Origin: an uncultured Pseudomonadales bacterium
Lineage (GTDB): Bacteria > Patescibacteriota > Microgenomatia > UBA1400 > RBG-16-45-19
Length of the DNA: 64,000 bases
NCBI GenBank assembly: GCA_964441155.1
Contig: CAYYKL010000005.1
Coordinates: 4,434 to 68,433 of the forward strand
Direction: 5' to 3'
The position numbers were made by a program, and so were the translations under genes. Of the stretch, positions 7,463-63,945 are shown one piece after another. Numbering within the stretch: position 1 is the stretch's first letter; every line of letters begins with the position of its first letter. Below the pieces are notes generated by a model that saw only the letters and a program-made list of their open reading frames with translations, searched no databases and was not told where the DNA came from.

Positions 7463-7831
7463 TTATTTTACTTTTTTATAAATAGCATTGAAAATCAGAT
7501 GCAATTCTTTAGCTTCTTGCCATAAGAGCTTGGCTTCCTGATTCAACTCGGGCACAGCAACTATCACCATACGGATAAAGTGTTTTGATTCCCGACATTC
7601 TTTTTTAACAATGGCAATTTTATGGCGAAAATCCCTTTTACTATCTGCATCATCGGCTTCACAATAATTTGCCCCAATACTTGTTGCGCTTCTAATTAAC
7701 TGAGTAATTAATGGCCGAGTTATAGCGTCCTGAGAAATTTGTTTACAAAAGCTGATTATCTTTTCTCCAAATAACGCCGTTCTATCTTCAAGATCATATA
7801 CTTTATCTCGATTTGATTGGTTATCAGACAT
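7463..7831 (-). CDS. four-helix-bundle protein (TIGR02436-type, the family typically encoded in 23S rRNA intervening sequences)
   Basis: 122 aa with SIGANYCEA and ESKHFIRM signature segments of the four-helix-bundle family. Confidence 0.65.
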   Translation of the reverse strand: MSDNQSNRDKVYDLEDRTALFGEKIISFCKQISQDAITRPLITQLIRSATSIGANYCEADDADSKRDFRHKIAIVKKECRESKHFIRMVIVAVPELNQEAKLLWQEAKELHLIFNAIYKKVK

Positions 7832-24980: not shown

Positions 24981-26600
24981 TTACAAATTCCCAAATTTTG
25001 ATCGATAGAGCTTGTCGATGTGTCGCTTGGCTGTATCCACCGTGGTAAACAGAGGCACATTTTCGTCAATCGCCTTAGCTCGAATTCGTTTGCCATCCGT
25101 ACCCTCAGTTTTGTCAGAGACTGATGTAGGCACACATACCACCAGATCAAATCGTCGCTCATCCAGTAGGTTGGACAAGTTGGGCGATTCATTCTCGTGA
25201 ATTTTGTAAACGAGAAAGTTGGTTATTCCTTGTTCAAGCAAGTAGTGATGCGTGTTTTGGGTGGCGAAAATTTGGAAACCCAATTCTTGCAGCTGCCCAG
25301 CACTCTCAAGCATTTTCTTTTTGTTTTCGGTTTTGCCGATAGACAGCAGTGCACTTTTTTCGCCACGCTGTTGGGCAAGGCGCATTTGCATCGAATAGAC
25401 TTCAATGAAAGGTGCTGCCGTCATCACATTAAAGGGCGCAGCTTTCGCGTTTGTGTTATCGAACGACACATGATGTAGACCATGTGGAGAGGTGAGTGCA
25501 ACCACGGTTGCATGCCCTTTAAATAATTGAACTTTAACCACACCGTCCACTTTTTCATTAATTTTGTCGTTGTAGGCTCTCATATCATCCATCGCGGGGT
25601 CATACCAGAGAGCGCCATAGGTTAAGTAGCCAAACTTGATGTCCATGGTTTCTTTAAGTTCGTTTTCAAGACGAGTGCACACGTATTTCTCCAAGTTTTT
25701 GTGCGCTTTGATGATGATGTGCGCTCCAGGATGCTCGTAAATCCCGCGAGTTTTTAATCCAACCAACCGATCTTCAACGTGATACTCGACTCCTACGCCA
25801 TGTTTGCCGCCGATTTTGTTGAGCTGCATAATAAGCTCGCTAAGGGGGAGTGTTTTGCCATTAAGTTTTTTCGGAATCCCCCGAGCAAACTCAAGCTCCA
25901 CCATTTCTGCCTTGTCGGGCGTTTTATCAATCGTTCTGCAAGCAGTCAAAAACTTTTCAATTGGCGGCACCAATGAGGGATCTTCAATCTCGCCACCTTC
26001 CCAGGTCATTCCCCACATATTATCATCATCGCTGTAGGGGAAATCTTTGCGCACGCGGACAGGAATTTTGTGTTTCAGCGCATAGTCGATTTGCTCATCG
26101 CGACTCATGTTCCACTCACGCACAGGAGCAATAATTTTCATAGCCGGATTCAGGGTCAACACACTGCCGTCCAGGCGCACTTGATCGTTGCCCTTGCCAG
26201 TGCACCCGTGGGCCACGGTGTCAGCATTTTCGCGCGCGGCAATCACTATTGCCCATTTGGCCATAAGATAGCGGCTAACCGTGGAAATGTAGTAATTGCC
26301 CTGATAGGCCGCATTGGCTTTGATCATGTGAGAAAGGTAGTCGGCAGCGAATTCTTGCTTGGCATCGATGACATAGGCTTTGACCGCCCCCAGCTTAAGT
26401 GCCTTTGCTTTAATCGCTTCGAGATCATCACCTTGTTGCCCCAGGTCAAGTGTCAGGGCTATTACTTCTGCCTGGTATTTGTCTTGTAACCACTTGAGCA
26501 TCATGCTGGTATCTAATCCTCCGGAATACAAAAGCACCACTTTTTTAATTTCGCCTTCGCGGGCTTCGTAGCTTGAGACTTTGGTGTAAACGGTTTGCAT
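24981..26600 (-). CDS. argG: argininosuccinate synthase fused to a C-terminal MGS-like (methylglyoxal synthase-like) domain
   Basis: VVLLYSGGLDTS PP-loop and HGCTGKGNDQVRLD match ArgG. A C-terminal domain of about 130 aa (ALLSIGKTENKK..GFQIFATQNTHHYL..LVVCVPT) resembles the CarB/PurH MGS-like fold. Confidence 0.7.
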   Translation of the reverse strand: MQTVYTKVSSYEAREGEIKKVVLLYSGGLDTSMMLKWLQDKYQAEVIALTLDLGQQGDDLEAIKAKALKLGAVKAYVIDAKQEFAADYLSHMIKANAAYQGNYYISTVSRYLMAKWAIVIAARENADTVAHGCTGKGNDQVRLDGSVLTLNPAMKIIAPVREWNMSRDEQIDYALKHKIPVRVRKDFPYSDDDNMWGMTWEGGEIEDPSLVPPIEKFLTACRTIDKTPDKAEMVELEFARGIPKKLNGKTLPLSELIMQLNKIGGKHGVGVEYHVEDRLVGLKTRGIYEHPGAHIIIKAHKNLEKYVCTRLENELKETMDIKFGYLTYGALWYDPAMDDMRAYNDKINEKVDGVVKVQLFKGHATVVALTSPHGLHHVSFDNTNAKAAPFNVMTAAPFIEVYSMQMRLAQQRGEKSALLSIGKTENKKKMLESAGQLQELGFQIFATQNTHHYLLEQGITNFLVYKIHENESPNLSNLLDERRFDLVVCVPTSVSDKTEGTDGKRIRAKAIDENVPLFTTVDTAKRHIDKLYRSKFGNL

Positions 26601-48477: not shown

Positions 48478-48669
48478 ATGAATATACTGACTAAACCACC
48501 ATTTGCGCTCCTTGCCCAAGTGAAACAAGAGTTGCAACTCACTACTTGGCCAACTCGAGAAGAAACAATTAAATTAACGGCAGTTGTTGTGTTGGTTAGT
48601 GTCGTAGTTGGCGTCTATTTAGGAGGCCTCGACTGGATACTAACATTGCTGCTCGCCCAGATTATTTAA
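48478..48669 (+). CDS. secE: preprotein translocase subunit SecE
   Basis: 63 aa with a single C-terminal TM helix and a WPTREET motif. It lies immediately upstream of nusG. Confidence 0.75.
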   Translation: MNILTKPPFALLAQVKQELQLTTWPTREETIKLTAVVVLVSVVVGVYLGGLDWILTLLLAQII

Positions 48670-48688: not shown

Positions 48689-49297
48689 ATGGCTAAAAAC
48701 CAAGATATTCTTGATGAAGTTCAAGAAATTAAAGGTCCCGAAAATCATTACCTTATTAATGACCTCGACGTCAAAGATGCTCGCTGGTATGTCGTGCACA
48801 CTTATTCTGGTCACGAAAACCGTGTTGCTCTCCAGTTGATGGCTCGTGTAAAAACCATGAATTTGGACCATAAAATCTTGGAAATCCTCATTCCGACGCA
48901 AAACAAAATTCAAATTAAACGCGGCAAAAAACAAGCCATTAAAGAGAAAATTTTCCCTGGATACATGCTCGTTAAGATGGTTATGGCCGACGATGCATGG
49001 CTGGCTGTTCGCACCACCCAAGGCGTAACCGGATTTGTGGGTGTCGGCACCAAACCGACGGCCCTGCCTAACCAAGAAGTTGACTCCATACAAAAATACA
49101 TGAATCAAGGTGCGCCAAAATACAAAGCCAATTTCTCAATTGGTGAGGCAGTCAAGATCATCGAAGGACCGTTTGCTGACTTTTTGGGAACCGTTGATTC
49201 GATCGATGATGCCAAGGGCAAGGTTAATGTGCTAGTGTCAATCTTTGGCCGTGAAACCCCAGTTGAGCTTGATTTCTTGCAAATCGCCAAAGTGTAA
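48689..49297 (+). CDS. nusG: transcription termination/antitermination factor NusG
   Basis: WYVVHTYSGHENRV (NGN domain) and C-terminal KOW GEAVKIIEGPFADFLGTV. Confidence 0.9.
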   Translation: MAKNQDILDEVQEIKGPENHYLINDLDVKDARWYVVHTYSGHENRVALQLMARVKTMNLDHKILEILIPTQNKIQIKRGKKQAIKEKIFPGYMLVKMVMADDAWLAVRTTQGVTGFVGVGTKPTALPNQEVDSIQKYMNQGAPKYKANFSIGEAVKIIEGPFADFLGTVDSIDDAKGKVNVLVSIFGRETPVELDFLQIAKV

Positions 49298-49303
49298 CTA
49301 GCA

Positions 49304-50614
49304 TCACCTGACTAATGCTGAAACAAGTGCATTGAATAGTTGAATTGAATAGTTGGCAAATTCACTGACAAGTTTCTGATAGTCTTGCATATTCACCAAA
49401 CCATCGTTATTGACATCAATTTCCAATGTGCAGCCAGCAAGCGCATGGTCTGATCCGCAAGCACCAGGACCGCCATACATTCCCATATCTGATCGCGATC
49501 CGTCAGGATCATGCAGTGCTGGGTCACCAGCATCTTTGGCATTTGAAGTAGGCATAAGATGAAAATCATTTGCACTCACAAATTGCGGGTCAATTGACAC
49601 ATTGTGAGCGTCTTGCAGTTCCTCAGGTGAATAAAAATGGTTAAAATTCCCTTCTCCACTTCCCCAAGATATGTTGTAGTTGAACGTCTCAAAATTAGTT
49701 TTTTGGTTAGCGATAATCCCGATTATTTGGTTATTAATGGAGATATTATTGAATACATGGCACTTGGTTAAGTCTGAACAATTTATGCCATCCCAACCAT
49801 TGGCTACGACCGTGTTATTTGAAATGGTTGCCTTCGCAGATTCATAGCCAGATATTCCTTCATGTTCATTCTGACTAATCAAATTGTTGGTTATGATTGC
49901 TTGAGAATTACCCCACAACCCAATTCCTTCTGCCGAGTCTGCCATAATTTCGTTGCTTGTAATGGTTGCCTGAGAATTCCCATACAGCGATATTCCGCCA
50001 AAGTTGCCAGAAAATTGACTATTCGAAATGGTAGCGTTGGCATTTCCATCGATGAAAATGCCTTCGTAATAGTTGAAGGCGAAAATACTTTGCGTTATTG
50101 TGGCTCGAGAATTAGATGAAATTTCTAGACCCGAACCTCCATTATTGAGTATAACCACTTGAGAAAGTTGTGCTTTGGAAGATCCGTCTATCATAATCCC
50201 CGATCGAGCAGCTTCAGTAATGCTGATATGTTCTAGCGAGATAATCGAGTCAACTACAGTAAGCGCGTCAGCATCTTTGCCCTTGAGGATAGTGTTTTGA
50301 GCTGCATCACCTCGTATTTCAATGTGCTGTTTGATAGGATGGCCATCAGTGCCAATTTTTAACTCCAGGCCTAGATAGGTGCCTGGCCGTATCTCAATCG
50401 TATTGGGCATTGATTCGCTACCGTTGGGTATGACATCAATCGCCTGCTGAATTCCATCTCTGCCTATATAGTTGCATCCATTTGTGCCCGCAATCCCTGA
50501 AGGACACACTGTGAGGTTGGTTGATTGCGCCACCACTTGGGTTGTTCCACCACCTGAAACCAAAAAAAACATTCCCAAAAAGAGTGTCCAGATCAAACAT
50601 CTTTTATGCATCAT
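49304..50614 (-). CDS. secreted right-handed parallel beta-helix repeat protein with C-terminal dockerin-like Ca-binding module
   Basis: Signal peptide, repeated NxxxSGxxxxGIxL-type pectate-lyase/NosD-like turns, and C-terminal DVNNDGLVNMQDYQKLVSEF. Confidence 0.6.
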   Translation of the reverse strand: MMHKRCLIWTLFLGMFFLVSGGGTTQVVAQSTNLTVCPSGIAGTNGCNYIGRDGIQQAIDVIPNGSESMPNTIEIRPGTYLGLELKIGTDGHPIKQHIEIRGDAAQNTILKGKDADALTVVDSIISLEHISITEAARSGIMIDGSSKAQLSQVVILNNGGSGLEISSNSRATITQSIFAFNYYEGIFIDGNANATISNSQFSGNFGGISLYGNSQATITSNEIMADSAEGIGLWGNSQAIITNNLISQNEHEGISGYESAKATISNNTVVANGWDGINCSDLTKCHVFNNISINNQIIGIIANQKTNFETFNYNISWGSGEGNFNHFYSPEELQDAHNVSIDPQFVSANDFHLMPTSNAKDAGDPALHDPDGSRSDMGMYGGPGACGSDHALAGCTLEIDVNNDGLVNMQDYQKLVSEFANYSIQLFNALVSALVR

Positions 50615-50734
50615 GACTCATGCTCTCAAAAATCGTTAAGGTTGTAAACGAATTAAGTGAACTGCTTGGCTTCAGTCTTATGTGACTTGAAAAATACATG
50701 AAAAAACGCAATTGAATTCCGTGTCGTCGACATC

Positions 50735-51829
50735 GTGCTATCCGTGTATAGTGAATATATTGGAAGTAAAATTCCAATAATGATCAAAGTAATTATGAAA
50801 ATCATTCAGACATTTCGCCGATTGCACTTCTTTCAAAAAATATCCCTTCTGGGTTTAGTAATCATGGGCATGAGCCTGCCCGCCTCAATTATTCTAAGTG
50901 CCTACGAAACACACTTTAATTCTAAAGCTGCTCAAGAAATTAGCAGAATCCAGGTTATGCCTCGGGATCGAGCCAATGACCCCCGACTGAGCATAACTTC
51001 TACGCCCAATCGATTTATCCGCTACCCCATCGAAGCCAGTATTTCAGGAGTCATCAAACCACCCATGCTGCCACCTCAAACTGGGTGCATTACTGGCGGT
51101 TGCTCGGGAGAATTGTGTCTGTCCGCAACTGAAGGTTATGATCGCTTTTCAACCTGCGAATGGAAAGAATCGTATGCATGTCTGAAAAGTTCTGCCATAT
51201 GCGAACAACAGGCAAGCGGTCAATGCGGCTGGACCTTTACACCAGAATATTACGCCTGTTTGAAATTTGGTTACAAAGATAGTGACGAAACTAGACCCAA
51301 AGCTTTGTGCGGAAACGGCCAGTGCGAACCACTTGAAGCCGACCAAGAGATATGCACGCGCTCCCTCCCTCCTCAATGCCATACCATAAAGGGAGCGTGT
51401 AATGAGGATTGCACTAATCCCACCCCACCCGCAAAACCGACTGGCGGTGAGCTAATGTGCGCCAAGGAATGTGCACTTGGTTACTACTTGAATTCCGAAT
51501 GTAATTGCGTGAGAGAGCGTTACCAAATGGATACCGGCTCGCTTGAACAAACGCGCGAAACTCGACAGGCTAGCGTTTGTGAAAAATCGGGAGGCGAATA
51601 TAAAACCCTTAGTGGTTGCGCCGATAGTTGTGATGTTCTCACCGATCCTTTAATTGCCTGCCCTGCTGATAGTCAGCAAGTCGCATGTGATTGTGGTCCT
51701 GCTCATTGCTGGAATGGAGCGCGCTGCATCAATAATCCTGCAACCAAAGCAAATGATTCGCTGGCAAAATTTGGATTCACGAATTGGGTCTCAAGTTTTA
51801 GAAGCTTCTTCGATGCCTATTTTAAATAG
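50735..51829 (+). CDS. cysteine-rich secreted or membrane-anchored protein
   Basis: N-terminal hydrophobic anchor followed by about 30 Cys in C..C/CxxxC spacing. The start is ambiguous (several in-frame ATG). Confidence 0.45.
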   Translation: MLSVYSEYIGSKIPIMIKVIMKIIQTFRRLHFFQKISLLGLVIMGMSLPASIILSAYETHFNSKAAQEISRIQVMPRDRANDPRLSITSTPNRFIRYPIEASISGVIKPPMLPPQTGCITGGCSGELCLSATEGYDRFSTCEWKESYACLKSSAICEQQASGQCGWTFTPEYYACLKFGYKDSDETRPKALCGNGQCEPLEADQEICTRSLPPQCHTIKGACNEDCTNPTPPAKPTGGELMCAKECALGYYLNSECNCVRERYQMDTGSLEQTRETRQASVCEKSGGEYKTLSGCADSCDVLTDPLIACPADSQQVACDCGPAHCWNGARCINNPATKANDSLAKFGFTNWVSSFRSFFDAYFK

Positions 51830-51845
51830 AATATAAATTCCTTAA

Positions 51846-52508
51846 GTGCAAACAAAAGGAGTAAACTATTCCATAGATAGTTACTTCAAACCGAGACAAA
51901 AGCTTGCTATGGAAAAAATAGTTGCCGCAATACTTCTTTCTCTGCTTATTGTTTCAGGAATTGTCTTGGCAGCACAAGTCCAGGGTTCTCTAGATAGCTT
52001 GCCATCGTTTAGTCAATTTGTTCCTAAATTAACCCGGCTCCCCCTAGATTTGTTCCCACAAGAAATAATCGTCTCCCCGAGCCCGGAACCATTGCTAGAT
52101 TCTATGCAAACGACACCAAACAAGCCTTCAGCGACAACTAAACCTTTGCGCGCATCACCCTCAATTGCCAAAAGAGTATTCCCAACAACGAGACCCTTCC
52201 CCACTTCACCTCCTATTGCTTGCGCTCGCTTCACGGTCACCCACCTTGACGGCAGCACCTCAAGACTTTGCTATTCCAGAGAAAATACCAATAGATTGCA
52301 ACAATTGGAATACGAGCGCTCCAGTGCTCAAGCGTTTTATGAATTCGATATGAGGTCAGCAACACGCTATCAAGAAGAATATGATCGATCGGGATCTTCG
52401 ATCTACCTCGATGCGAAGGCGCGTAGCGAGCAAAGTGCAAAAGAGAATCTCATCAAACGAGATGCAGCCGTTGCCGCGATGCAAGAAATTGAAAAGCTTG
52501 GGTGGTAA
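51846..52508 (+). CDS. hypothetical membrane-anchored protein with Pro/Ser/Thr-rich linker
   Basis: TM helix IVAAILLSLLIVSGIVLAA followed by low-complexity PSPEPLL..PTTRPFPTSPP. The real start is possibly at 51909. Confidence 0.4.
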   Translation: MQTKGVNYSIDSYFKPRQKLAMEKIVAAILLSLLIVSGIVLAAQVQGSLDSLPSFSQFVPKLTRLPLDLFPQEIIVSPSPEPLLDSMQTTPNKPSATTKPLRASPSIAKRVFPTTRPFPTSPPIACARFTVTHLDGSTSRLCYSRENTNRLQQLEYERSSAQAFYEFDMRSATRYQEEYDRSGSSIYLDAKARSEQSAKENLIKRDAAVAAMQEIEKLGW

Positions 52509-52554
52509 CCTCAAGCTTTTGACGCAAGTTATAAGGAGTATAATTATTGTATCG

Positions 52555-53001
52555 ATGGAACTTTTAATTAGTCTACCTCAGCTTTTTATCATCGTTGGTC
52601 TCTTGTTGATTCTGGCCGAACTATTTATCGGCATTCAAACGGGTTTTGATTTGGTGCTCATTGGATCGATTGTGATTATTTCTGGTTTTGCAGGCATCGC
52701 CACGGAATCAATCCCCTTGATGCTGACACTCGCGAGTGGCTTGAGCATTGCCTATATTTTCGTTGGCCGGAACAAAATCAGGCAAAAAATTACCGTCATC
52801 ACCAAAAAGACCAATATCGACAAACTTATTGGTATGCAAGGCTTGGTGGTTCGCTCAATCACGCCAGACACTCCGGGCTTGGTTCGCTTGAATGACGAAG
52901 ATTGGCGCGCTGTTAGCCACGAAGTAATTTTTGAAAAAGAGTCATTCGAGGTGGTCGCTATCGAGGGCGTCAGTTTGGTAGTTAAGAAAGTTAAAAAATA
53001 A
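52555..53001 (+). CDS. NfeD-like membrane protein (short form with C-terminal OB-fold), partner of the SPFH protein
   Basis: Two N-terminal TM helices then GLVVRSITPDTPGLVRLNDEDWRAVS. AAGGAG RBS sits before ATG at 52555; the ORF track's upstream extension is not supported. Confidence 0.6.
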   Translation: MELLISLPQLFIIVGLLLILAELFIGIQTGFDLVLIGSIVIISGFAGIATESIPLMLTLASGLSIAYIFVGRNKIRQKITVITKKTNIDKLIGMQGLVVRSITPDTPGLVRLNDEDWRAVSHEVIFEKESFEVVAIEGVSLVVKKVKK

Positions 53002-53020
53002 TTTAAGGAGCAATTCGCCT

Positions 53021-53866
53021 ATGGAACCGTTTTCACTGGTCGTTTTTAGTTTGATTTTTATTATTTCTTTATTTGCTTTGGCTTCATCAATTCGCATTAT
53101 CAAACAATACGAAAAAGGCTTGGTGATTCGCTTGGGAAAATATCACGCCACAGCTGATGCGGGGGTTGCTTTTCTATTACCGTTTTTGGATTCATTGATT
53201 CGTGTTGATATGCGCGAGCAAGTCATCAATGTCATGCCTCAACAAGTAATCACTAAGGACAACGTTGGCGTGACCGTTGATGCGGTGATTTATTACAAAG
53301 TGGTTGACCCCGTCAAAGCTGAATTCGAAATTCAAAACTTCAATTTTGCTGCAACGACCTTAGCGCAGACTAATTTGCGCAATTTGATTGGCGATAAGCA
53401 ACTAGATGAAACACTCACTGCCCGCGATAGTATCAACGCTTCTTTGCGCGAAGTCTTGGACGAAGCCACTAATGCTTGGGGTGTCAAAGTGATGAAAGTT
53501 GAACTCCAAAAGATTGATCCCCCAGCCGATATCACCGATGCCATGAGCAAACAAATGAAGGCTGAGCGCGAAAAGCGGGCGATTATTTTGGAAGCTCAGG
53601 GTGTGCGTGAAGCGGGAATTTTGCGAGCCCAAGGTGATGCGCAGGCAACTCTCCTTCGAGCTGAAGCATTGGCTAAATCAACGGAAATGACGTCACTAGC
53701 TGCCCAAAAATTCTTCACCGATCGCGCCGAAGCGCTGAAGAAGTTGGAGGTCTCCGAAAAAGTCTTGGGTGATGGCGCAACTAAGTTTGTCATTCCCACA
53801 TCTTCAGACTTGGTTAATGTCTTAAATCTTGAAGGCTCGAGCTCGGTAATTCCACTTAAAAGGTAA
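53021..53866 (+). CDS. SPFH/band-7 (stomatin/prohibitin-like) protein
   Basis: N-terminal TM, IRIIKQYEKGLVIRLGKY, a characteristic coiled-coil tail EREKRAIILEAQG..AEALAK, and AAGGAG RBS. Confidence 0.8.
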   Translation: MEPFSLVVFSLIFIISLFALASSIRIIKQYEKGLVIRLGKYHATADAGVAFLLPFLDSLIRVDMREQVINVMPQQVITKDNVGVTVDAVIYYKVVDPVKAEFEIQNFNFAATTLAQTNLRNLIGDKQLDETLTARDSINASLREVLDEATNAWGVKVMKVELQKIDPPADITDAMSKQMKAEREKRAIILEAQGVREAGILRAQGDAQATLLRAEALAKSTEMTSLAAQKFFTDRAEALKKLEVSEKVLGDGATKFVIPTSSDLVNVLNLEGSSSVIPLKR

Positions 53867-53926
53867 GCTGGATGCAGGACCAAACCTCACGTTGAATACC
53901 ACTCAAGTTTGTGAAACTATAAATGC

Positions 53927-55231
53927 ATGAGGTTATCAACTCCAAAGAAGCTGAGTTTGTTGATTGCGATTCTTTTGATTGTTGTTGTGTCGCTAAAACT
54001 CATGCCTATTGCTTCAGCCCAGTTCTACATTGAAACACGAGCTGACATCAATCAAGATGGACAAGTCAATATTTTTGACTTCAATGAATTCGTCACAGAT
54101 TTTGGCAAAGGGTCTGGAATTCCCACAACCGATCCGACTCAAAACCAATATCACCTCGTTTCTCATGAAGACCATATTGTCATGAGATTTGAAGAAGGAT
54201 ATGGTTCGCGCTCGGGCATCTGGCTTGATTTGTTTCAAAATGGTACCGAGCTAGACCTTAATAGCCAAAATTTTATGGTTACTCACGCACCAGAAGATTC
54301 TGCACTACTCACGGTTGTATCAGATCAAAATACCCCCAATTCAGGCTATTCTATCGATGCTAAATCACCGGGCTCAACTTCGGTGATTACCATGGTAAAA
54401 AGCGCTCAAAACTTAAATTTGTTAGCTATTAAGCGATTGCCTGTAACCATCTACGACTCTTCGAAATTCTCCTGCGCGGATGATGGACCGATTAACGTCA
54501 ATTTTGTTACCGGTGAAGACGCTCAAATTCCAATTGGTCAAATTGGCATCAATGTAAACACCGTGAATAATAAATTTGTTGGCTATCAATATGATTTTGA
54601 TGGTGATGGATTTTATGACACACACATCACCGAAAACAATATTATGCCATTTAAGTTTTTATCTCCTGGTAGCTACCTTCCCCGATACCGAATTGTGGGC
54701 TCAAATAATCTCTTTCAAGATTGCGAATATCCCACTCGATTAACCGTCACCGGAGAAGTAATTGAACCTGACGATTTAACGAGTGAAATGTACCCTGTTG
54801 ATTGGAGTGTTGATAACATTCATTTTACAGCCCAATCATTTATTATTACCGCCAATGGAAGAGTTTATAAACCTCCTCAGGACACACAACTCATACAATA
54901 CACAGACACTTCCAATGGAATCCCTTCAGGCTTGGTATTAGCCCTTAGATGGAATGATAACGATGAAGAAATTCGATTAAATATTATATTCAAGATCGAT
55001 CAAGATTCTTGGGAATACGATTCAATGCAATTTGAAGATGCTCGTTATTTTAGCTGGATTGAATTTCAAATGCCAAGCACCGTTCCTCGCCTGACCAGTG
55101 ATTTTCAATCAAATCATTTATTTCCAAATTCAATTTCCATGCATTCTGATCCAGAAGTGTGGAAAATGAAAAAAGGGCACATTGCGATCAAACAGGCCCG
55201 AGTTTCAATCACCAAACCAGATGGTTTGTAA
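53927..55231 (+). CDS. secreted protein with N-terminal dockerin-like module
   Basis: Signal peptide then DINQDGQVNIFDFNEFVTDF. The remainder is beta-rich with no known catalytic motif. Confidence 0.5.
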   Translation: MRLSTPKKLSLLIAILLIVVVSLKLMPIASAQFYIETRADINQDGQVNIFDFNEFVTDFGKGSGIPTTDPTQNQYHLVSHEDHIVMRFEEGYGSRSGIWLDLFQNGTELDLNSQNFMVTHAPEDSALLTVVSDQNTPNSGYSIDAKSPGSTSVITMVKSAQNLNLLAIKRLPVTIYDSSKFSCADDGPINVNFVTGEDAQIPIGQIGINVNTVNNKFVGYQYDFDGDGFYDTHITENNIMPFKFLSPGSYLPRYRIVGSNNLFQDCEYPTRLTVTGEVIEPDDLTSEMYPVDWSVDNIHFTAQSFIITANGRVYKPPQDTQLIQYTDTSNGIPSGLVLALRWNDNDEEIRLNIIFKIDQDSWEYDSMQFEDARYFSWIEFQMPSTVPRLTSDFQSNHLFPNSISMHSDPEVWKMKKGHIAIKQARVSITKPDGL

Positions 55232-55337
55232 TTATCTCCAACGTCGTATTTTTTCAATAAAGCCTCTCCTTGACGTGCCCCTTATTTCTTGAGTAAAGTA
55301 AAACTAAAGTCTCGATTAACGTATTGAATGAAAGTAA

Positions 55338-57098
55338 TTGAAAATGTCAAAGGCACTTGTTCGTTTAATAGTTTTGTCTTCTGTCCTGGTTTTGATTGTA
55401 GGATTGGCTTCGAAAATAATAATAAAAGATCAAGTGATAGCGCTATCCCCTCCTGAACTTATTCCTACACCAACACCCATTCCTACTCCATATTCAGACC
55501 CAGGGCCATGTTTTGAAAGCCAAGAAGTGCTTCATGTGTATCCCCCAACCAATGCTTCAGGCTGCACGAGCTTGGGAGTTGCGCTACTACGAGCGGCAAT
55601 TTCACTAGACGGACCTAAGGAAGTATATGTGCACGCGGGAGCGTATGATCTTAATACGCAAGATTTTGCCCACACAAGATCACCGTCTTTCGCCCTAGAC
55701 CTCCAAAACGTTGATGATCTCACACTCAAAGGCGAGACAGGATCAAATGGCGAAAACTTAGTCACCATCAATGTCAGCGGAAACAGAGGATTATTTTTAC
55801 TGGAAAACAGCTCGTTAACACTTGAGTCGCTTAATTTCTCTGGCAGCACTATAAACGGACTTTTGCATGCAGAGTCAGGGTCTAACCTTGCTGTGACTAA
55901 TGTTCACAGCACCTATACAGGTTCGAATGTATTTGAAGCACATGGTGCAAATTCCGTCACAATCTACAAAAGTGTTATTTCTGGAGGTGTAGGAGCTCTT
56001 CAATTCCAGGATGTTGGCAATACGAGCATTATTTACAACACAATAATAAACAACTCTCGAGGAATCATCATTTCCAATGGTCCAGCTCAAATCAAATATA
56101 ATTTGCTTGTAAACAATTCGGATGGGGAATCAATTCACCTTACTAACTCAAGATCAAGCTTTATAAGCAACAACACAATTGTGCAAAGTCGAAACTTTCA
56201 CAACGAATACCCCTTGAAAATATCACAACCGTTTCTCGATGAACCGACGACCGTCCAATACAATATTCTCTCTAGTGTTGATGGTGGATTAGAAGTCGAA
56301 TCTGCTTATGAAAGTGCGGTGAATATTCAAAGGAATAATATTTACACAAGCGAATCTGCTTATAAAGGAATTTCCAATCGGACGGGCATGCTTGGTAATA
56401 TATCAAGCGATCCATTTTTAAGCCCAGAATATTGCCTACTTCCTAACTCCCCTTCGTTGTTGCCAGATGGGCTATTCATGGGTCACACAGGTCTTTGTGA
56501 ATCACTTGAGCCAACTCATGACCCAAATGATTTATTCTACAGAATTGATATTAACCCTGGACAATTGACCACTTCTATAGGCACAGAGCGAATTCTATTT
56601 TCAGCGCAGGCTGTACCTTTTAATCACGTCGACGAATCAATTGCCACGTATGAATGGGGCATGAGCTCTGACAATTCAATTGGAACCTTGTTTAGTGATC
56701 CATCAAACCAGAAACAGGCGTGGTTCACGCCGGTTCGAGCCGGCAGAGGCGATATCTGGGTGACCGTGCGCATTGGCGACTATCACAAAACTGCCTCAGT
56801 GCCGGTTGTGGTCAATAAATTGTGTCAAGAAAAAGATAGTTGCACCACCGACGCCTGTATTGCTATCGTTCCTCCTGGAGGCTGGTGTGCCTCAGAGGAT
56901 TTGCCGGGAGATGTCGATTTTAATAATACTGTAGATTATCAAGACATCGTCCAGTTCAAGCGTTATTTTGACCAGAAATTCTATCCGGCTGATTTTAATT
57001 TCGATGGTAAAGTGAATATCTACGATTTTCTGTATATCATCAAGAATTTCGGATTGAGCATGGAAGTGTTGGACGAACCGTTGCCTGATACACCATAA
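55338..57098 (+). CDS. secreted parallel beta-helix repeat protein with C-terminal tandem dockerin-like repeats
   Basis: Signal anchor, repeated N..I..N.. beta-helix turns, and C-terminal DVDFNNTVDYQDIVQFKRYF and DFNFDGKVNIYDFLYIIKNF. Confidence 0.6.
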   Translation: MKMSKALVRLIVLSSVLVLIVGLASKIIIKDQVIALSPPELIPTPTPIPTPYSDPGPCFESQEVLHVYPPTNASGCTSLGVALLRAAISLDGPKEVYVHAGAYDLNTQDFAHTRSPSFALDLQNVDDLTLKGETGSNGENLVTINVSGNRGLFLLENSSLTLESLNFSGSTINGLLHAESGSNLAVTNVHSTYTGSNVFEAHGANSVTIYKSVISGGVGALQFQDVGNTSIIYNTIINNSRGIIISNGPAQIKYNLLVNNSDGESIHLTNSRSSFISNNTIVQSRNFHNEYPLKISQPFLDEPTTVQYNILSSVDGGLEVESAYESAVNIQRNNIYTSESAYKGISNRTGMLGNISSDPFLSPEYCLLPNSPSLLPDGLFMGHTGLCESLEPTHDPNDLFYRIDINPGQLTTSIGTERILFSAQAVPFNHVDESIATYEWGMSSDNSIGTLFSDPSNQKQAWFTPVRAGRGDIWVTVRIGDYHKTASVPVVVNKLCQEKDSCTTDACIAIVPPGGWCASEDLPGDVDFNNTVDYQDIVQFKRYFDQKFYPADFNFDGKVNIYDFLYIIKNFGLSMEVLDEPLPDTP

Positions 57099-57168
57099 AT
57101 TCAAGCGTGCGAAATGGTTACTTCTCTTCTTGACAGTCAACTAGGTCACATACTACGCTAAGGACACT

Positions 57169-57510
57169 ATGCAAAACGATTCACATCCCGTTTCAATTTC
57201 CAAAGAATTCCAAAAGTTTTGGGCACGGCTCGACAACTTTCAGCAGCTTAATATTCTTTCGCTCTCTTTGATTCTTTTGGCAACCATTCTCGGTGTTTCA
57301 GTCATGACTCAGCGCCAAATTGAAGTGCTTTATGTAAAAGCAAGTCAAGCTACTCCCGTATTGGGTATTAGCGATGAGATGCAAGACTTGCCTGTTGAGA
57401 GTCTTGCCTGCAATCTCAATTGTCCCGCACCATCAAAACTTGACGAACAAAATTGCAGCTGCACCTTTCCCCGCATCCCACGCAATCCCTTGATCAACAT
57501 CACCGAATAA
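57169..57510 (+). CDS. hypothetical small membrane-anchored protein (113 aa)
   Basis: Single TM (ILSLSLILLATILGVSVM) and a Cys-containing C-terminus. Confidence 0.35.
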   Translation: MQNDSHPVSISKEFQKFWARLDNFQQLNILSLSLILLATILGVSVMTQRQIEVLYVKASQATPVLGISDEMQDLPVESLACNLNCPAPSKLDEQNCSCTFPRIPRNPLINITE

Positions 57511-57610
57511 ACTTTTAGTTACACATCTTCCACCACACAAAAAAGTGTGCTATAACAATCTCTAATCGTGCTGCCCGCAATTACGTTTAGTTTATGTTGC
57601 AAGGAGCACA

Positions 57611-58105
57611 ATGAAAAAAATTTCCCCTCTAGTTATTACGCTCGCCTTAACAGGAGTTCTCTCTACTCGCGCTCAAGCGCTTAATCTGGACGATTTCGAT
57701 AATTTTGATTGGCTCAAAGAAGATATCAAAGTCGAGTTGCCTTCGTCACTTCTTGAAGAAGGACAGCCATGTCTCACCAACTGCGCGCCCAAACCCACCA
57801 AAATCCCTACTCAAGTCGCAGATCCCGCACCAACGCCGACAGCAAAACCCACACCCACTCCAACACCCGTGAAGCTTGATGTAAGAACTAGAGAGCGCCA
57901 CTCCACTCGCGAATGGTTTAACCGAGAAACCTCCTACGAGTACAACGAAGATGTTGAGGGCGAGGGCGAAAACGGAACCACGTTGCCCGTTCCTACTCCA
58001 ACCCAGAATCAAGACAGTCACGCCAACACATCATCGGACTCACTCTTCGATTCACTGCTCGAAAAAATTGGCGGTATAGGCTCGCTCCTATCTAGCTGGC
58101 TCTAA
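57611..58105 (+). CDS. secreted protein with Pro/Thr-rich linker
   Basis: Signal peptide MKKISPLVITLALTGVLSTRAQA, then PTPTAKPTPTPTPVK. Confidence 0.45.
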   Translation: MKKISPLVITLALTGVLSTRAQALNLDDFDNFDWLKEDIKVELPSSLLEEGQPCLTNCAPKPTKIPTQVADPAPTPTAKPTPTPTPVKLDVRTRERHSTREWFNRETSYEYNEDVEGEGENGTTLPVPTPTQNQDSHANTSSDSLFDSLLEKIGGIGSLLSSWL

Positions 58106-58153: not shown

Positions 58154-58182
58154 TTCACACTTGGGCTTTCCTCTGCTACAAT
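58154..58182 (+). promoter_or_regulatory. putative sigma70-type promoter TTCACA-17-TACAAT for rplK
   Basis: Canonical spacing, about 38 nt upstream of the rplK start codon. Confidence 0.4.
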
Positions 58183-58219: not shown

Positions 58220-58648
58220 ATGGCTAAAGTTAAAAAAATCAAAACCATTCTAAAACTCAATTTATCCGCTGGAGCGGCTAATCCCGCACCTCCGGTAGGT
58301 ACCGCTCTCGGTCCCCATGGTGTTAACATCATGGAATTTTGCAATGCGTACAACGAAAAAACCAAAGACAAGCGCGGCCAAATTTTGCCAGCCGAGGTCA
58401 CTATTTATGAAGACCGAACCTTTACGTTCGTCGTCAAATTACCCCCTGTCTCAGAACTTATTAAAATTGCGCTCAAGATTAAAAAGGGTGGCGCTACCCC
58501 TGGAAAAGCCGAAGCAGCCACTATGACTAAAGCGCAACTCGAAGCTGTGGCCACCGAAAAAATGCCCGATCTTAATACCACCAATCTCGAAGCGGCTATG
58601 CGCTCTGTCGAGGGCACTGCCAAAAGCATGGGCATCAAGATCGTTTAA
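58220..58648 (+). CDS. rplK: 50S ribosomal protein L11
   Basis: APPVGTALGPHGVNIMEFCNAYN. Confidence 0.9.
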   Translation: MAKVKKIKTILKLNLSAGAANPAPPVGTALGPHGVNIMEFCNAYNEKTKDKRGQILPAEVTIYEDRTFTFVVKLPPVSELIKIALKIKKGGATPGKAEAATMTKAQLEAVATEKMPDLNTTNLEAAMRSVEGTAKSMGIKIV

Positions 58649-58886: not shown

Positions 58887-59594
58887 ATGGGTTCATCTAA
58901 AATAAAAACAGTCGATATGTCAATCGAACCAGGCAGTGAAGGTCATGGTGAGCAAGCTGAAAAAGCAACCAAAAAGGAAAAAGTGGCTCAAGGCCGATCT
59001 AATACTTACAAAACCGTTAAAGGCTTAGTTGATCGCACCAAAACGCTTAAACTCCCTAAAGCCATCGAGTTATTGAAAAAAACCTCCTATACCAAGTTCG
59101 TGGGTACGGTCAGTGTTGATGCGCTAGTTCGTGACGAAAAACTCAATGTCGAAACAACGTTCCCCCACGCAACCGGCAAAACAACCCGCGTGGCTGTCGT
59201 CACTGAAGAGCTATTGGAATCGATCCTTAAGGGAACTATCGATTTTGATGTGTTAATTGCCACCCCTGCCATGATGCCTAAAGTTGCTCGTGCTGCAAAG
59301 GTGCTCGGGCCCAAAGGCCTCATGCCTAACCCCAAGAACAGAACGGTCACCGACGACGTGGAGAAGCGCAAAAAAGAACTCGAAGCGGGATCGGTCACAA
59401 TCAAGTCCGAGCGCAAAGCACCTCTCATCCATGTAACCATCGGTAAGATAAACCAGAGCGAAAAAGAATTGATTGCTAATATTGAACACCTAATCAAAGT
59501 GGTTGGACCCCGACAAATCAAAAAAATGACTATCTCGGCAACCATGAGCCCTGGGGTTAAAGTTGATTTGAGTGAGTATCAAGTAATAGTCTAA
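58887..59594 (+). CDS. rplA: 50S ribosomal protein L1
   Basis: GPKGLMPNPKNRTVT and overall L1 layout; AGGAGA RBS. Confidence 0.9.
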   Translation: MGSSKIKTVDMSIEPGSEGHGEQAEKATKKEKVAQGRSNTYKTVKGLVDRTKTLKLPKAIELLKKTSYTKFVGTVSVDALVRDEKLNVETTFPHATGKTTRVAVVTEELLESILKGTIDFDVLIATPAMMPKVARAAKVLGPKGLMPNPKNRTVTDDVEKRKKELEAGSVTIKSERKAPLIHVTIGKINQSEKELIANIEHLIKVVGPRQIKKMTISATMSPGVKVDLSEYQVIV

Positions 59595-59643: not shown

Positions 59644-60378
59644 ATGTCTGATACTATTTTTGGATCACTTGAATTTGTGTATCCCTATAAAGAAATCGAG
59701 TTTCCAGGGCAACATTCCGACGAAATCATTTTGTTTGCCACCCGTGAGGGCAAAATCATGCTCACCCTGCGTCAAATTGCCGTGGTGCTTGGCGCTGTCA
59801 TTTTAACCCTCATGAGCTATTTCATCGCGCATGAAGTCATTGCCCCATTTTCAAAATCCTTTGCTGCCAGCTTCGCCGCTGTTGCTATGGGCGTGAGTGT
59901 TGCCTTTGGCCTCATTGCCGTTTGGTGGGTGAGTATTTTATGGCGCAAATCAATTTTTATCATTACCACTCGCCGCCTCACCAAATTTATCCACACTACT
60001 CCCTGGAATCGCTACCAACTCTCTCTGTCCCTCGATAAAATCGTTGATACAGGAGCATATCAGAAGGGTTTTTTGCAATCATTGTTCAAGCTTGGCTACT
60101 TTGTCGCCCGTTCAAGTGCGGGCAACATCAAGAATTTTAAGATCTTAAATATTTCTTTTGCCGAGGATTTACATAACTACGTCAATAAATTGTTATTCAC
60201 CTTCAACAAAGATAAAGACGCACTGGTCAAATTCAGGCCGTTTATCCCCCATTTGAAAGGCGAAACCCGCGATGCATTCGTAGCCCAATTTACGCCCGAA
60301 TATGCCAAATATAAGCTGATTCCGGAAAAGGCTGCTTCAGTGACTGCGGTCGATTCGCACATCGATAGCAGTGAATAA
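59644..60378 (+). CDS. hypothetical membrane protein (two TM helices, possible bacterial PH-like domain) inserted between rplA and rplJ
   Basis: 244 aa with hydrophobic segments VVLGAVILTLMSYFIA and MGVSVAFGLIAVWWVSILW. Confidence 0.45.
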   Translation: MSDTIFGSLEFVYPYKEIEFPGQHSDEIILFATREGKIMLTLRQIAVVLGAVILTLMSYFIAHEVIAPFSKSFAASFAAVAMGVSVAFGLIAVWWVSILWRKSIFIITTRRLTKFIHTTPWNRYQLSLSLDKIVDTGAYQKGFLQSLFKLGYFVARSSAGNIKNFKILNISFAEDLHNYVNKLLFTFNKDKDALVKFRPFIPHLKGETRDAFVAQFTPEYAKYKLIPEKAASVTAVDSHIDSSE

Positions 60379-60743: not shown

Positions 60744-60771
60744 TGCAAATAATCAGGCTTCTTGGTATAGT
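60744..60771 (+). promoter_or_regulatory. putative sigma70-type promoter TTGCAA-16-TATAGT for rplJ-rplL
   Basis: Near-consensus hexamers about 190 nt upstream of the rplJ ATG. Confidence 0.5.
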
Positions 60772-60872
60772 ACCCTTTGTTCCACAGACAGCAAGCACGC
60801 TAAGTAAGTCTTGCCGAGGATACTACATATTCCGCTTAAGCTTTAAAAGCTCGAGTAGTAAAGTTAGTAATC

Positions 60873-60895
60873 CTCGCCAAGTGCGAGGTTTTTTA
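60873..60895 (+). promoter_or_regulatory. hairpin CCTCGC-caagt-GCGAGG plus T6 in the rplJ leader (attenuator-like, L10-leader type regulation)
   Basis: Terminator-like structure inside the 5' UTR. An upstream alternative pairing CCGAGGAT ... ATCCTCG (about 60812-60878) overlaps the stem. Confidence 0.4.
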
Positions 60896-60964
60896 ATAAG
60901 TAGGCTATTGCCGCTTACATCAACATATATATTATCAACAGGTCTCTACTAGAAGGAAATCACT

Positions 60965-61510
60965 ATGCCAAACCTTAAAAATCAAACTCAAATTGCCGAC
61001 ATCAGCGAGAAACTCGCTAAAGCCAAAAATGCTGTCTTTACCAGTTATGCGGGCCTGAGTGTCGCCGATCAAGTGACTTTGCGCGCCAAAATTAAACTCG
61101 CCGGTGGCGAGCTGAATGTGGTCAAAAACACACTCGTGCGCCGAGCTCTGTCTGATCGATTGGAAACCGCCGAACAAGCAACGCTGGAACAAGCGCTTCA
61201 GGGCCCCACTGCCGTTGTCTATGGCTATGAAGACGTAGTAACTCCCACCAAAGCCTTGGTCGAATTCGCCAAAGAACACGAAGTCATGTCGATGAAATTG
61301 GGTGTTATGTTTAATGAATCAGGCAAAGCCGACTCAGTGCTCACCGCTGATCAAGTAGTTGCCCTCTCCAAATTGCCTGGCAAACAAGAGCTATTGGCGC
61401 AACTCGTTGGCCAATTGAATGCCCCCATCACTGGCTTTGTGAATGTATTGCAAGGCAATATTCGCAAGCTCGTGTATGTCTTGAAAGCAATTGAAGATAA
61501 AAAGAATTAA
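60965..61510 (+). CDS. rplJ: 50S ribosomal protein L10
   Basis: 181 aa. IADISEKLAKAKNAVFTSYAGLSVADQVTLRAKIKLAGGELNVVKNTLVRRAL is the family-typical N-terminal layout. Confidence 0.9.
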   Translation: MPNLKNQTQIADISEKLAKAKNAVFTSYAGLSVADQVTLRAKIKLAGGELNVVKNTLVRRALSDRLETAEQATLEQALQGPTAVVYGYEDVVTPTKALVEFAKEHEVMSMKLGVMFNESGKADSVLTADQVVALSKLPGKQELLAQLVGQLNAPITGFVNVLQGNIRKLVYVLKAIEDKKN

Positions 61511-61564: not shown

Positions 61565-61981
61565 ATGGCTGAAGATACAGCAACAAAAGGCACCGCAGCC
61601 TCCAAAGCGGTTCAATCAATTATTGATGCAGTTGAAAAACTGTCCGTGCTCGAATTGGCAGAATTGGTCAAAGCACTCGAAGAGAAATTCGGTGTTTCGG
61701 CTGCTGCTCCCATGATGATGGGTGCCGCTATGCCTGGTGCAGCTGCTGCTGAACCTGTTGAAGAAAAGACCGAATTCGATGTCGTCTTAACTTCTGCTGG
61801 CAGTAACAAAATTGCCGTCATCAAAGCAGTGCGCGAACTCAATCAATCATTAGGCTTAATTGAAGCCAAAAAAGTGGTTGAGTCTACTCCTCAAACGTTG
61901 ATGGAAGCTGCTAAAAAAGAAGATGCCGAAGCCGCCAAAAAGAAACTCGAAGAAGCTGGAGCGCAAGTCGAGCTCAAGTAA
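61565..61981 (+). CDS. rplL: 50S ribosomal protein L7/L12
   Basis: N-terminal dimerisation helix, Ala/Pro-rich hinge, and C-terminal [26 protein letters not shown]...EAGAQVELK. Confidence 0.9.
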
Positions 61982-62117: not shown

Positions 62118-63188
62118 TTACCGTATCTGCAACACACCTGCCCGATCCATGCGCACAATTGGAGTCATGAAATCGCGTTCATGCGCGCGCCACAAAGCTT
62201 GCGAAAAGAGAGCGAGCTGATTCACTTCGACCGAATCACTGCCACAATCAACACAAAACCCTCGAGCAACAAAACCCTCAGGTGCTCTGCAATCTGCTGG
62301 TGAATACCGCTCACGAAGTGTGTCGAGGTGAGAAAATAGCGACTGCGTGAGGTATGACCGCAAGAATGCAGCATGCAGCCCTCTTGGCACAAAAGGCCGA
62401 AGGTTGTCATCTGACAAGTGCTTGCGCACTATTACTTTCATGATATCCTCATTGCCATACACCCCATTACCACTTGGACGCTCCAAACGCATCGCCACAC
62501 TCACATCAGCAATGGTAAACAGGAGGTGCGCGGCCCAATCTAGTGGGCCAAATGAGCGCACAGGCGCTTGAGTGAGCTCATGAGCAAAGGGAGTGAAATC
62601 GCTGTGGTGCAGTGCCGTTTGCAGTGACCAATAGTGGATCGATTGCCGCGAAACTTCAGGTGTTACTTGAACCAATGCTTGCAATGCCAGCGCTCCAAAT
62701 GCAGGATGAGCCCAGTGCAGGCCATTCTCTTCAGGTGGCCGATCGCGATAATTTGCAGGATACACCAATGCTCGCGACGCTTCAAAATCTCGACCCACCA
62801 GTGTTTTGCCATTGTCGTGCACAAAAGCAAAAGCCAATCGATCATTGAGAGCTGGCCACATTTGGTTCTGCTGCTTGGTGGGAAACAAGCGCACCCAATC
62901 TCGCCCCACCTTGAGGCTTAAATCCCCCACCAGTGCCATGTGCAAAAAGTTGGCCGGATCCGCCTTAGCCTGCCCCACCAAAAACGAATCTAGTTCTGGG
63001 AATGTTCCCAAAAACGGTGCAAACGAATCAGGCAACACCACAAACCCATCCTCGGCTTCGGGAACGACTACGTATTTTTTATCTGGATATAGCAGCGCAT
63101 GTGCTGCATTTGTGATTTCTGTCACAGGGCATTGTACACTGCTTTGTAAAAATTTTCCCAGGCTTTTTCGGCCAATGCAATGCATCAT
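62118..63188 (-). CDS. hypothetical protein (about 355 aa), locally elevated GC
   Basis: Long ORF with no recognised motif. GC is visibly higher (roughly 50%) than flanking genes. The start is taken at MMHCIGRK. Confidence 0.45.
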   Translation of the reverse strand: MMHCIGRKSLGKFLQSSVQCPVTEITNAAHALLYPDKKYVVVPEAEDGFVVLPDSFAPFLGTFPELDSFLVGQAKADPANFLHMALVGDLSLKVGRDWVRLFPTKQQNQMWPALNDRLAFAFVHDNGKTLVGRDFEASRALVYPANYRDRPPEENGLHWAHPAFGALALQALVQVTPEVSRQSIHYWSLQTALHHSDFTPFAHELTQAPVRSFGPLDWAAHLLFTIADVSVAMRLERPSGNGVYGNEDIMKVIVRKHLSDDNLRPFVPRGLHAAFLRSYLTQSLFSHLDTLRERYSPADCRAPEGFVARGFCVDCGSDSVEVNQLALFSQALWRAHERDFMTPIVRMDRAGVLQIR

Positions 63189-63312
63189 GAACCATCCGAT
63201 TCTTACGCTTCTTTTACCATAATGGCGTTGCACGAAAACTGGGTGGCGGGTAGATTGAGACCCGTGAGGAACCCAACATCATTTGAGATCCACACAAAAA
63301 GGAGGTGATTAC

Positions 63313-63945
63313 ATGAAACAATTTATTTCCAAATTAGCAGTTGCTTCAAGCATGTTCGCACTCACCGCGATGCCCGCATTCGCTGCCGCCTATTCCCTTG
63401 AACCCTGGACCTATGACCCAGATTCAACGGGCACGGTTGTGGCCGAATTGTCAGCAAGTGGTGAATTAACGCTTGAAAAAAACGCGCCCACTCCAACCAA
63501 TTCTGCAGCAGGAGCTGAGATTGCAGGAGTAGAAGGTCTTTCCACCACTGGAATGACGCTTTCCTACGACGTTGAGGGATATTGTGACGCGGGTGCACCT
63601 AGGTTTAATGTCTACCTCGAAGGAGGCACGACCGTATTCTTAGGGTGTGCTCATGGCAACGATGGATCAGGACACGTGACATTTGAAGCCGGCCAAACAT
63701 ACGGCGGTGTTCTGTTCCCTGAAAACGAAACCATCCTTGGCATCGATATTGTGATGGACGAAGAGGGTCAATCAACCTTGAGTAATATCCAGGTTGATGG
63801 CCAAGACGTAGTCGTCATTGCTCTTCCATCAGATAAAGAAGCCTGTAAACAAGGTGGTTGGATGAATTACACCGATTCCTCGGGTAATCCGTTCAAAAAC
63901 CAAGGTCAATGTGTCAGCTACATGGCCAAAATGCAGCACGATTAA
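63313..63945 (+). CDS. hypothetical secreted protein
   Basis: AAAGGAGG RBS, then MKQFISKLAVASSMFALTAMPAFAAA signal peptide. Gly/Thr-rich beta-type sequence follows. Confidence 0.5.
   Translation: MKQFISKLAVASSMFALTAMPAFAAAYSLEPWTYDPDSTGTVVAELSASGELTLEKNAPTPTNSAAGAEIAGVEGLSTTGMTLSYDVEGYCDAGAPRFNVYLEGGTTVFLGCAHGNDGSGHVTFEAGQTYGGVLFPENETILGIDIVMDEEGQSTLSNIQVDGQDVVVIALPSDKEACKQGGWMNYTDSSGNPFKNQGQCVSYMAKMQHD

Follow-up and report, generated by a model that had tools for sequence, protein, structure and literature searches.

In Escherichia coli, secE and nusG, rplK and rplA, and rplJ and rplL with rpoB and rpoC are organised as separate transcription units (secE-nusG, rplKA and rplJL-rpoBC). Here we describe how this region is arranged in a stretch of 64,000 nucleotides (assembly GCA_964441155.1, contig CAYYKL010000005.1; hereafter the window), in which a block of nine genes for predicted envelope and secreted proteins lies between nusG and rplK. 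As in E. coli, all six genes from secE to rplL are present, co-oriented and in their canonical relative order, and an L10-leader-like element precedes rplJ; the locus differs in being interrupted between nusG and rplK (8.9 kb) and between rplA and rplJ (one gene), and in having no rpoB after rplL. By analogy with E. coli, these breaks coincide with transcription-unit boundaries. The rplK-nusG cassette was found in 553 of more than 1800 genomes, that is, frequently but not universally (PMC9514032).

Parts of the block also have described counterparts. In the E. coli QmcA-YbbJ operon and in the archaeal PH1511/PH1510 pair, an nfeD gene is followed by an adjacent and co-oriented gene for an SPFH protein, an arrangement found here with a 19-bp spacer, and in the PDB the SPFH and NfeD proteins of the block find their best matches in QmcA and YbbJ, the chains of the E. 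coli complex 8z5g. The archaeal PH1510 is a long NfeD with a ClpP-like protease domain, whereas the NfeD protein here is short and has no such domain; the position between nusG and rplK is peculiar to the present lineage. Outside the bacteria that make cellulosomes, dockerin-like modules commonly occur without any cohesin. Dockerin-domain envelope proteins have already been recognised in the phylum Patescibacteria: SEML1_0315 of Southlakia epibionticum is one, is essential in this cultivated Saccharibacterium, and has led the authors of that study to speculate on adhesion to, or degradation of, host glycans (PMC10633639). Like our block, it comes from the candidate phyla radiation, and in both cases predicted envelope proteins combine a dockerin module with domains that would bind or degrade glycans, in a region where no cohesin is visible; the likeness drawn here is one of architecture, and single loops make up two of the three modules of the block.

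We interpret the block as a long-standing, lineage-specific and fast-evolving neighbourhood of envelope genes at the boundary between the secE-nusG and rplKA operons in one sub-clade of Patescibacteria, a reading to which we assign a probability of about 70%. Synteny shows a stable core, formed by a QmcA/YbbJ-type SPFH-NfeD pair, a disulfide-rich anchored protein, a beta-helix-dockerin protein and small Pro/Thr-rich proteins. Around this core there are variable slots, in which secreted proteins with calcium-binding (Ca) modules are gained, lost and reshuffled between species; in the present genome the slots are taken by the polysaccharide-lyase/epimerase-like bh436 and the tandem-immunoglobulin (Ig)-like p434, each with a single dockerin-like Ca loop. 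The genes of the gap and its two borders are as follows (aa, amino acids; TM, transmembrane).

48689-49297, plus strand: nusG, bordering the gap on the left (Pfam NusG, E 9.3e-29, and KOW)
49304-50614, minus strand: bh436, secreted right-handed beta-helix protein of 436 aa (Beta_helix, E 1.4e-33; NosD, E 7.4e-18)
50780-51829, plus strand: cys349, N-terminally membrane-anchored, Cys-rich protein with an eight-cysteine domain (26 Cys in 349 aa)
51909-52508, plus strand: pt199, membrane-anchored Pro/Thr-rich protein of 199 aa, with an N-terminal hydrophobic segment and a Pro/Thr-rich window
52555-53001, plus strand: short-form, YbbJ-like NfeD protein of 148 aa, with TM segments and a C-terminal OB domain (Pfam NfeD, E 1.5e-12)
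53021-53866, plus strand: SPFH/stomatin-type, QmcA-like protein of 281 aa (Band_7, E 1.1e-40; TM segment at residues 6-24)
53927-55231, plus strand: p434, secreted all-beta protein of 434 aa, with a signal peptide, a Ca loop and a PKD-like middle domain
55344-57098, plus strand: bh584, protein of 584 aa with a TM anchor, Pro/Thr-rich linker, beta-helix (Beta_helix, E 4.3e-7), Ig-like domain and C-terminal dockerin
57169-57510, plus strand: p113, small protein with a single TM segment and a four-Cys C-terminus
57611-58105, plus strand: p164, secreted Pro/Thr-rich protein with a signal peptide (17 Pro and Thr residues in a 30-aa window)
58220-58648, plus strand: rplK, bordering the gap on the right (both Pfam L11 domains, N- and C-terminal)

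The gap is real and non-random. The distance between nusG (ending at 49297) and rplK (starting at 58220) is 8,922 bp and contains nine open reading frames (ORFs) by the ORF map and Pfam scans, in agreement with the preliminary description of this locus, and public assemblies call the identical nine ORFs (436, 349, 199, 148, 281, 434, 584, 113 and 164 aa). An exact-sequence look-up of NusG returned the same layout in contigs from at least six Sequence Read Archive runs; two of these contigs (L001 and L003) extend across the gap, from before nusG to within rplA, and agree at 100% identity in every protein. Since the layout is repeated in independent assemblies, the gap junctions are not an assembly artefact, and a chimera is ruled out by these six or more assemblies together with the agreeing sister species described below. 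Domain scans matched the gap content first proposed (beta-helix, Cys-rich and Pro/Thr-rich proteins and an NfeD-SPFH pair). The envelope or secreted character of the products was likewise borne out, as sequence-based prediction gives each of the nine a signal peptide or a hydrophobic segment at the N-terminus. No family assignment pointed to a ribosome-related role for any of the nine genes, and such a role was rejected.

Comparison with four sister species (related loci L007, L098, L099 and L100) indicated that most of the block is shared. Their NusG proteins are 96-98.5% identical to that of the window, and the flanking genes have about 77-80% nucleotide identity. The same gap is present in all four, with the Cys-rich protein, NfeD, SPFH and a bh584 orthologue, while p113 and p164 were found in L098-L100; the L007 contig ends within the bh584 homologue. 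Of the nine genes, bh436 and p434 alone are missing from every one of the four species. Conservation is very uneven along the block: identity to the sister species is 96-98% for NusG, 95% for L11, 91-93% for SPFH and 73% for NfeD, then 75-79% for p113 and p164 (75-77% and 77-79%, respectively, in L098-L100), 53-70% for bh584, about 53% for pt199 and about 35% for cys349. At the nucleotide level, the whole of cys349 (50780-51829) and the centre of bh584 (55938-56389) had no match in the sister species, with neighbouring sequence aligning at 76-80%. Both segments are hypervariable, which is consistent with diversifying selection on exposed surfaces.

The L007 contig (CAZVUJ010000037.1), with its NusG at 96% and with the flanks and part of the block in common, was deposited under the name "uncultured Pseudomonadales bacterium", probably through mis-binning or mislabelling. 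In L098 (10643-12462), the pt199-like and Cys-rich genes are broken into pieces of 97, 80 and 290 aa and are intact in the near-identical L099 (10656-12390), reflecting either pseudogenisation or an assembly error.

The core proteins belong to familiar families. The SPFH-NfeD pair is of the QmcA-YbbJ type, with a Band_7 protein that has an N-terminal TM segment and an adjacent, co-oriented NfeD that has an OB domain. The best PDB match of the SPFH protein is E. coli QmcA (8z5g_A, E 1.3e-57), and NfeD matched 2k5h (E 1.3e-11), YbbJ (8z5g_B, E 0.004) and 3wwv, with the Pfam NfeD match covering residues 147-203 of the long ORF. For cys349, whose ORF has an alternative GTG start at 50735, the scores against TIGR04289 (29.8 bits, cut-off 50) and TIGR04292 (32.4 bits, cut-off 200) are below cut-off, and the precomputed match to PF27854 (Heavy_Cys_CGP) is marked "weak", being unmarked for the homologue in L011, a more distant relative. 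Its eight-cysteine scaffold is nevertheless kept in L007, L099, L100 and L011 despite identities of 25-40%. Homologues of pt199 are 52-54% identical in L099 and L100 and missing from L007, and a 43% match lies upstream of NfeD in the distant L016. The order of pt199 and cys349 is reversed with respect to the sister species; in L099 and L100 a pt199-like gene precedes the Cys-rich gene. Both bh436 and bh584 scored above the Pfam threshold for the right-handed beta-helix (PbH1, PF13229).

At larger distances, NusG homologues form a group at 96-100% identity, below which the next are at 79% or less. Named neighbours are limited to Candidatus Chisholmbacteria (70%) and Saccharimonadia (73%), and the genome thus belongs to the candidate phyla radiation (Patescibacteria). 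A NusG scan of genome contigs returned one close relative (labelled "Pseudomonadales") and three other matches that are distant and have the canonical order. Among relatives with NusG 72-78% identical (L011, L012, L013, L016 and L102), the junction is again filled; they are listed here together with the further locus L101.

L011: gap of 3.7 kb; a pair of response regulators plus a Heavy_Cys protein, with a bh584-family beta-helix protein between rplK and rplA
L012: gap of 7.2 kb; histidine kinase, response regulators, NfeD-SPFH and a Big_2 protein with a two-loop dockerin
L013: gap of 5.4 kb; CBM96 protein, Wzy_C, a bh584-family beta-helix protein with a dockerin-like C-terminus, and a response regulator
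L016: gap of more than 10 kb; NfeD-SPFH, then a 1098-aa protein with a Ca loop at its end, and a subtilase
L102: gap of 1.5 kb; Laminin_G/fn3 protein between rplK and rplA
L101: no rplK in the 5.8 kb that follow nusG; Wzy_C and the best homologue of bh436 (43%) just upstream of secE

Several families of the block therefore recur at this junction: NfeD-SPFH in L012 and L016 (59-65% identity for NfeD, 75-77% for SPFH), the bh584 family in L011 and L013 (27-29% identity, E 1e-18 to 1e-31) and the Cys-rich family in L011. Dockerin-like loops also recur, in L012, L016 and L101. The synteny comparison proposed in the preliminary description thus revealed an interruption shared by the sister species and a junction that is also filled in deeper relatives. 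That description had set its island reading against an interruption that is ancient and universal in the phylum and carries ribosome-related genes; what we found is old and clade-wide, not phylum-wide, and its genes have no ribosomal function.

Lone receiver-domain genes were also identified in the gap of L011 (2850-3663), L012 (17336-17725), L013 (15560-15943) and L102 (7111-7479). They lie directly upstream of rplK in L012, L013 and L102, and the pair in L011 precedes the Cys-rich gene; L012 additionally has the histidine kinase, and the gap of the window's own genus has no receiver-domain genes.

The secE-nusG-rplKAJL arrangement had been introduced as among the most conserved gene orders in bacteria. 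Its genes are indeed present in order, but the order is much less fixed in this group, nusG and rplK being separated in about 26% of 81 informative related loci. The two genes are adjacent (less than 300 bp apart) in 2 of 7 loci with NusG identity of at least 70%, in 21 of 32 at 60-70% and in 37 of 42 below 60%. Similarly, rplA and rplJ are often split in related loci, with up to 7 kb between them. Among related loci L014-L086, rpoB is next to rplL in none of the 16 candidate-phyla-radiation loci that were informative (in 13 it is missing from the first 1.5 kb, and in 3 it lies at a distance of 1.2-6.5 kb), whereas it is adjacent in all three loci from outside this radiation. The gene order is split here because in this group the cluster holds within operons and not across their boundaries. 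This calls for caution with the supposedly universal secE-nusG-rplKAJL-rpoBC order, which is kept only within operons, and a break at a boundary is thus not by itself evidence of a mobile island.

Two of the genes, bh436 and p434, are specific to this genome. The gene bh436 is convergent with nusG, with 6 bp between them, and encodes a signal peptide and one C-terminal Ca loop, DVNNDGLVNMQD, at 49382-49417 (minus strand). An AlphaFold2 model built with 31 homologues is a beta-helix (predicted local distance difference test, pLDDT, 89; predicted template modelling score, 0.83). The nearest solved structures in a Foldseek search were the PL9 pectate lyase Pel9A (1ru4), the mannuronan C5-epimerases AlgE4, AlgE6 and AlgG, PL6 lyases and Vibrio RbmB, with E-values of 2e-7 to 1e-4 and template modelling scores of up to 0.54 by query and 0.59 by target. 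The likeness to Pel9A, AlgE4, AlgG, PL6 and RbmB lies in the modelled fold, together with the Pfam Beta_helix and NosD matches; sequence identity is 12-16%, and the likeness is at the level of the fold. As seen above, the best homologue of bh436 is a neighbour of secE-nusG in L101, and a beta-helix plus a dockerin is a recurrent architecture among its homologues. The possibility that bh436 and bh584 are recent paralogues was rejected, as they have no significant similarity beyond the Ca loop.

For p434, a word-index homology search gave no match except p434 itself, and a full HMMER search identified two full-length homologues (35% and 28%), both of which keep the N-terminal loop. This single Ca loop, DINQDGQVNIFD, is found at 54044-54079 (plus strand), after the signal peptide. 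One homologue, P0158, sits in another context, adjoining ComEC. The slot of p434 holds a 249-aa Ig-plus-dockerin protein in L098 and L099 and is empty in L100 and L007. The AlphaFold2 model of p434 has low confidence (pLDDT 59.9) and matches generic tandem Ig, cadherin and FnIII beta-sandwiches; it speaks neither for nor against a cohesin-like domain. Its PKD-like middle domain, YQYDFDGDGFYD (residues ~195-280), is unrecognised by Pfam at E 0.1 or better, and we found the same repeat 8-13 times in giant metagenome proteins of 1,000-4,000 aa (P0159-P0175).

From sequence, the products of the block are predicted to be exported through the Sec pathway and kept at the cell surface. Tethering might be provided by N-terminal anchors, or by Ca-dependent dockerin-like modules binding a non-cohesin partner. 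The beta-helix domains, judging from their fold, would act on acidic polysaccharide of the cell itself or of a host, by binding or cutting it. As eight of the nine genes are co-oriented with rplKA, with spacers of 20-115 bp, the block may be co-transcribed with rplKA or profit from a highly expressed region. No mechanism beyond the ordinary turnover of surface proteins is required, and the arrangement is an ordinary case of lineage-specific genes settling between transcription units.

Several points weigh against reading the block as a long-standing neighbourhood of surface-protein genes. Relatedness among loci was ranked by NusG identity only. In L015, L017 and L103, which are about as distant as the relatives with a filled junction, the order is canonical, and nusG and rplK are separated by 26 bp in L015 and by 103 bp in L017. 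The nusG-rplK split may have arisen once or several times. In the bh436 family alignment, the beta-helix core conserves structural Gly and Asn residues and the remaining conservation is a C-terminal cap motif, with no catalytic constellation seen; bh436 may bind glycan without cleaving it. Two of the three Ca modules amount to half a dockerin, and no partner was found for the dockerin-like modules. Finally, scans for promoters and terminators gave counts equal to those of shuffled sequences and cannot define transcription units, so that co-transcription of the block with rplKA is a conjecture.

Among other explanations, we considered a cellulosome-like cohesin-dockerin display, in which the three tagged proteins would dock on a scaffoldin encoded elsewhere. 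The motif D.[ND].[DN]G.[VIL]...D has exactly three matches in the six-frame translation of the window, against 0.01 expected from codon shuffles, and all three lie inside the block: the loops of bh436 and p434 given above and one in bh584 (56991-57026, plus strand). The clustering of Ca loops in the block is thus real. The claim that all three proteins carry dockerin-like repeats holds in so far as each has a loop, but only bh584 has a two-repeat dockerin. It alone has two loops, DVDFNNTVDYQD and DFNFDGKVNIYD, at 56910-56948 and 56991-57029, in two tandem segments of Ca loop plus helix, and it alone exceeds the gathering score of Dockerin_1 (PF00404; 26.4 bits against 22.9, residues 523-570). 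In bh436 and p434 there is one such segment each; p434 reached 14.2 bits and bh436 had no match. A display of this kind would agree with the score of bh584, with that of the 249-aa paralogue in L099 (27.7 bits, also above threshold) and with the recurrence of beta-helix-plus-dockerin proteins among bh436 homologues. As first noted, however, no cohesin-like partner is visible: Pfam scans found none among about 55 proteins across the window. The single loops of bh436 and p434 also argue against it, the bh584 module resembles, among solved structures, EF-hand pairs no less than type I dockerins (E 0.002-0.1), and cohesin-free modules are, as noted above, common beyond cellulosome producers. We therefore regard such a display as unlikely.

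A second explanation requires no shared function, the nusG-rplK boundary being a permissive site where genes accumulate neutrally in small, rearranging genomes. The mixed cargo of the distant loci (response regulators, a histidine kinase, Wzy_C, a methyltransferase and PIN/MazE) fits this, as do the varied genes likewise held at the rplK-rplA, rplA-rplJ and rplL-rpoB junctions. Envelope proteins are, however, enriched in the gaps: an N-terminal hydrophobic segment was predicted in 27 of 47 gap ORFs and in 21 of 64 ORFs of the upstream flank in related loci (Fisher p 0.012). Moreover, the NfeD-SPFH, bh584-type and Cys-rich families recur among relatives with NusG 72-100% identical, and the Ca loops are strikingly concentrated in the block. 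Purely neutral accumulation thus appears quite improbable.

More speculatively, and with little probability in our view, non-cellulosomal, Ca-dependent surface display may have a dedicated and conserved site of expression in the secE-nusG/rplKA neighbourhood of this sub-clade, with exchangeable effectors carrying whole or half dockerins and a non-cohesin anchor in the same block. The effectors would include beta-helix proteins that bind or cleave glycans and Ig-like proteins, the candidate anchors would be the eight-Cys protein or the SPFH-NfeD scaffold, and the single-loop half dockerins would pair in trans. If so, the swapping of effectors between species would tune host or substrate specificity in an episymbiont.

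The block had originally been described as an insertion and an island. Its composition is native: GC content stays level along the region, none of the nine genes departs by more than 2 standard deviations from 52 other genes of the window in GC content, GC content at third codon positions or codon use, and the tetranucleotide distance of the block ranks 10 of 51. Integrase and transposase genes were absent from Pfam and NCBIfam scans, ARAGORN predicted no tRNA in the whole window, no Rfam family reached its gathering threshold anywhere in the window, and repeats flanking the block are limited to short pairs at chance level. The absence of bh436 and p434 from the four sister species, the unrelated context of the p434 homologue and the varying cargo among relatives would agree with a recent horizontally transferred island integrated between nusG and rplK, but with this composition, without signs of mobility, with seven of the nine genes syntenic in the sister species, with the same families recurring where NusG is 72-78% identical, and with recent gains of at most two single genes, that account of the whole 9-kb block is largely refuted and very improbable.

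How bacteria of the candidate phyla radiation attach to hosts or substrates is largely obscure, and the block, read as a long-standing envelope-gene neighbourhood, supplies a short list of fast-evolving, surface-exposed candidates: the two beta-helix proteins, the Ig-like protein and the disulfide-rich anchored protein, beside the conserved SPFH-NfeD pair.

The remaining features of the cluster in the window are these.

48478-48669, plus strand: secE (Pfam SecE, E 1.9e-16)
58154-58182: promoter-like site before rplK (TTCACA-17-TACAAT, with TG ahead of it)
58887-59594, plus strand: rplA (Pfam Ribosomal_L1, E 2.5e-28)
59644-60378, plus strand: tm244, 244-aa protein with two TM segments, between rplA and rplJ
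60764-60903, plus strand: L10-leader-like RNA (RF00557, 33.1 bits, where the gathering score is 44; E 0.0066 when 3.1 kb was searched; match over the full length of the model)
60965-61510, plus strand: rplJ (Pfam L10, above threshold)
61565-61981, plus strand: rplL (Pfam L12, above threshold)

The membrane protein tm244 does split rplA from rplJ, as previously described; it has no Pfam or NCBIfam match, is 85% identical in L098 and L099, and gives way to other genes in L100. A terminator-like GC hairpin with a T-run (60872-60888) lies within the spacer of 587 bp ahead of rplJ, and the leader-like RNA may represent the L10 autoregulatory leader in a form that has diverged in the candidate phyla radiation. 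Downstream of rplL, in place of rpoB, we found an orphan gene of 371 aa (62118-63233, minus strand, GC 0.505, no Pfam match) followed by a gene for a secreted 220-aa protein (63283-63945). Elsewhere in the window, a gene of the 23S_rRNA_IVP family (7463-7831, minus strand) lies between frr and an M50/PDZ protease gene, and an argininosuccinate synthase (24981-26600, minus strand) has a fused C-terminal MGS-like domain.

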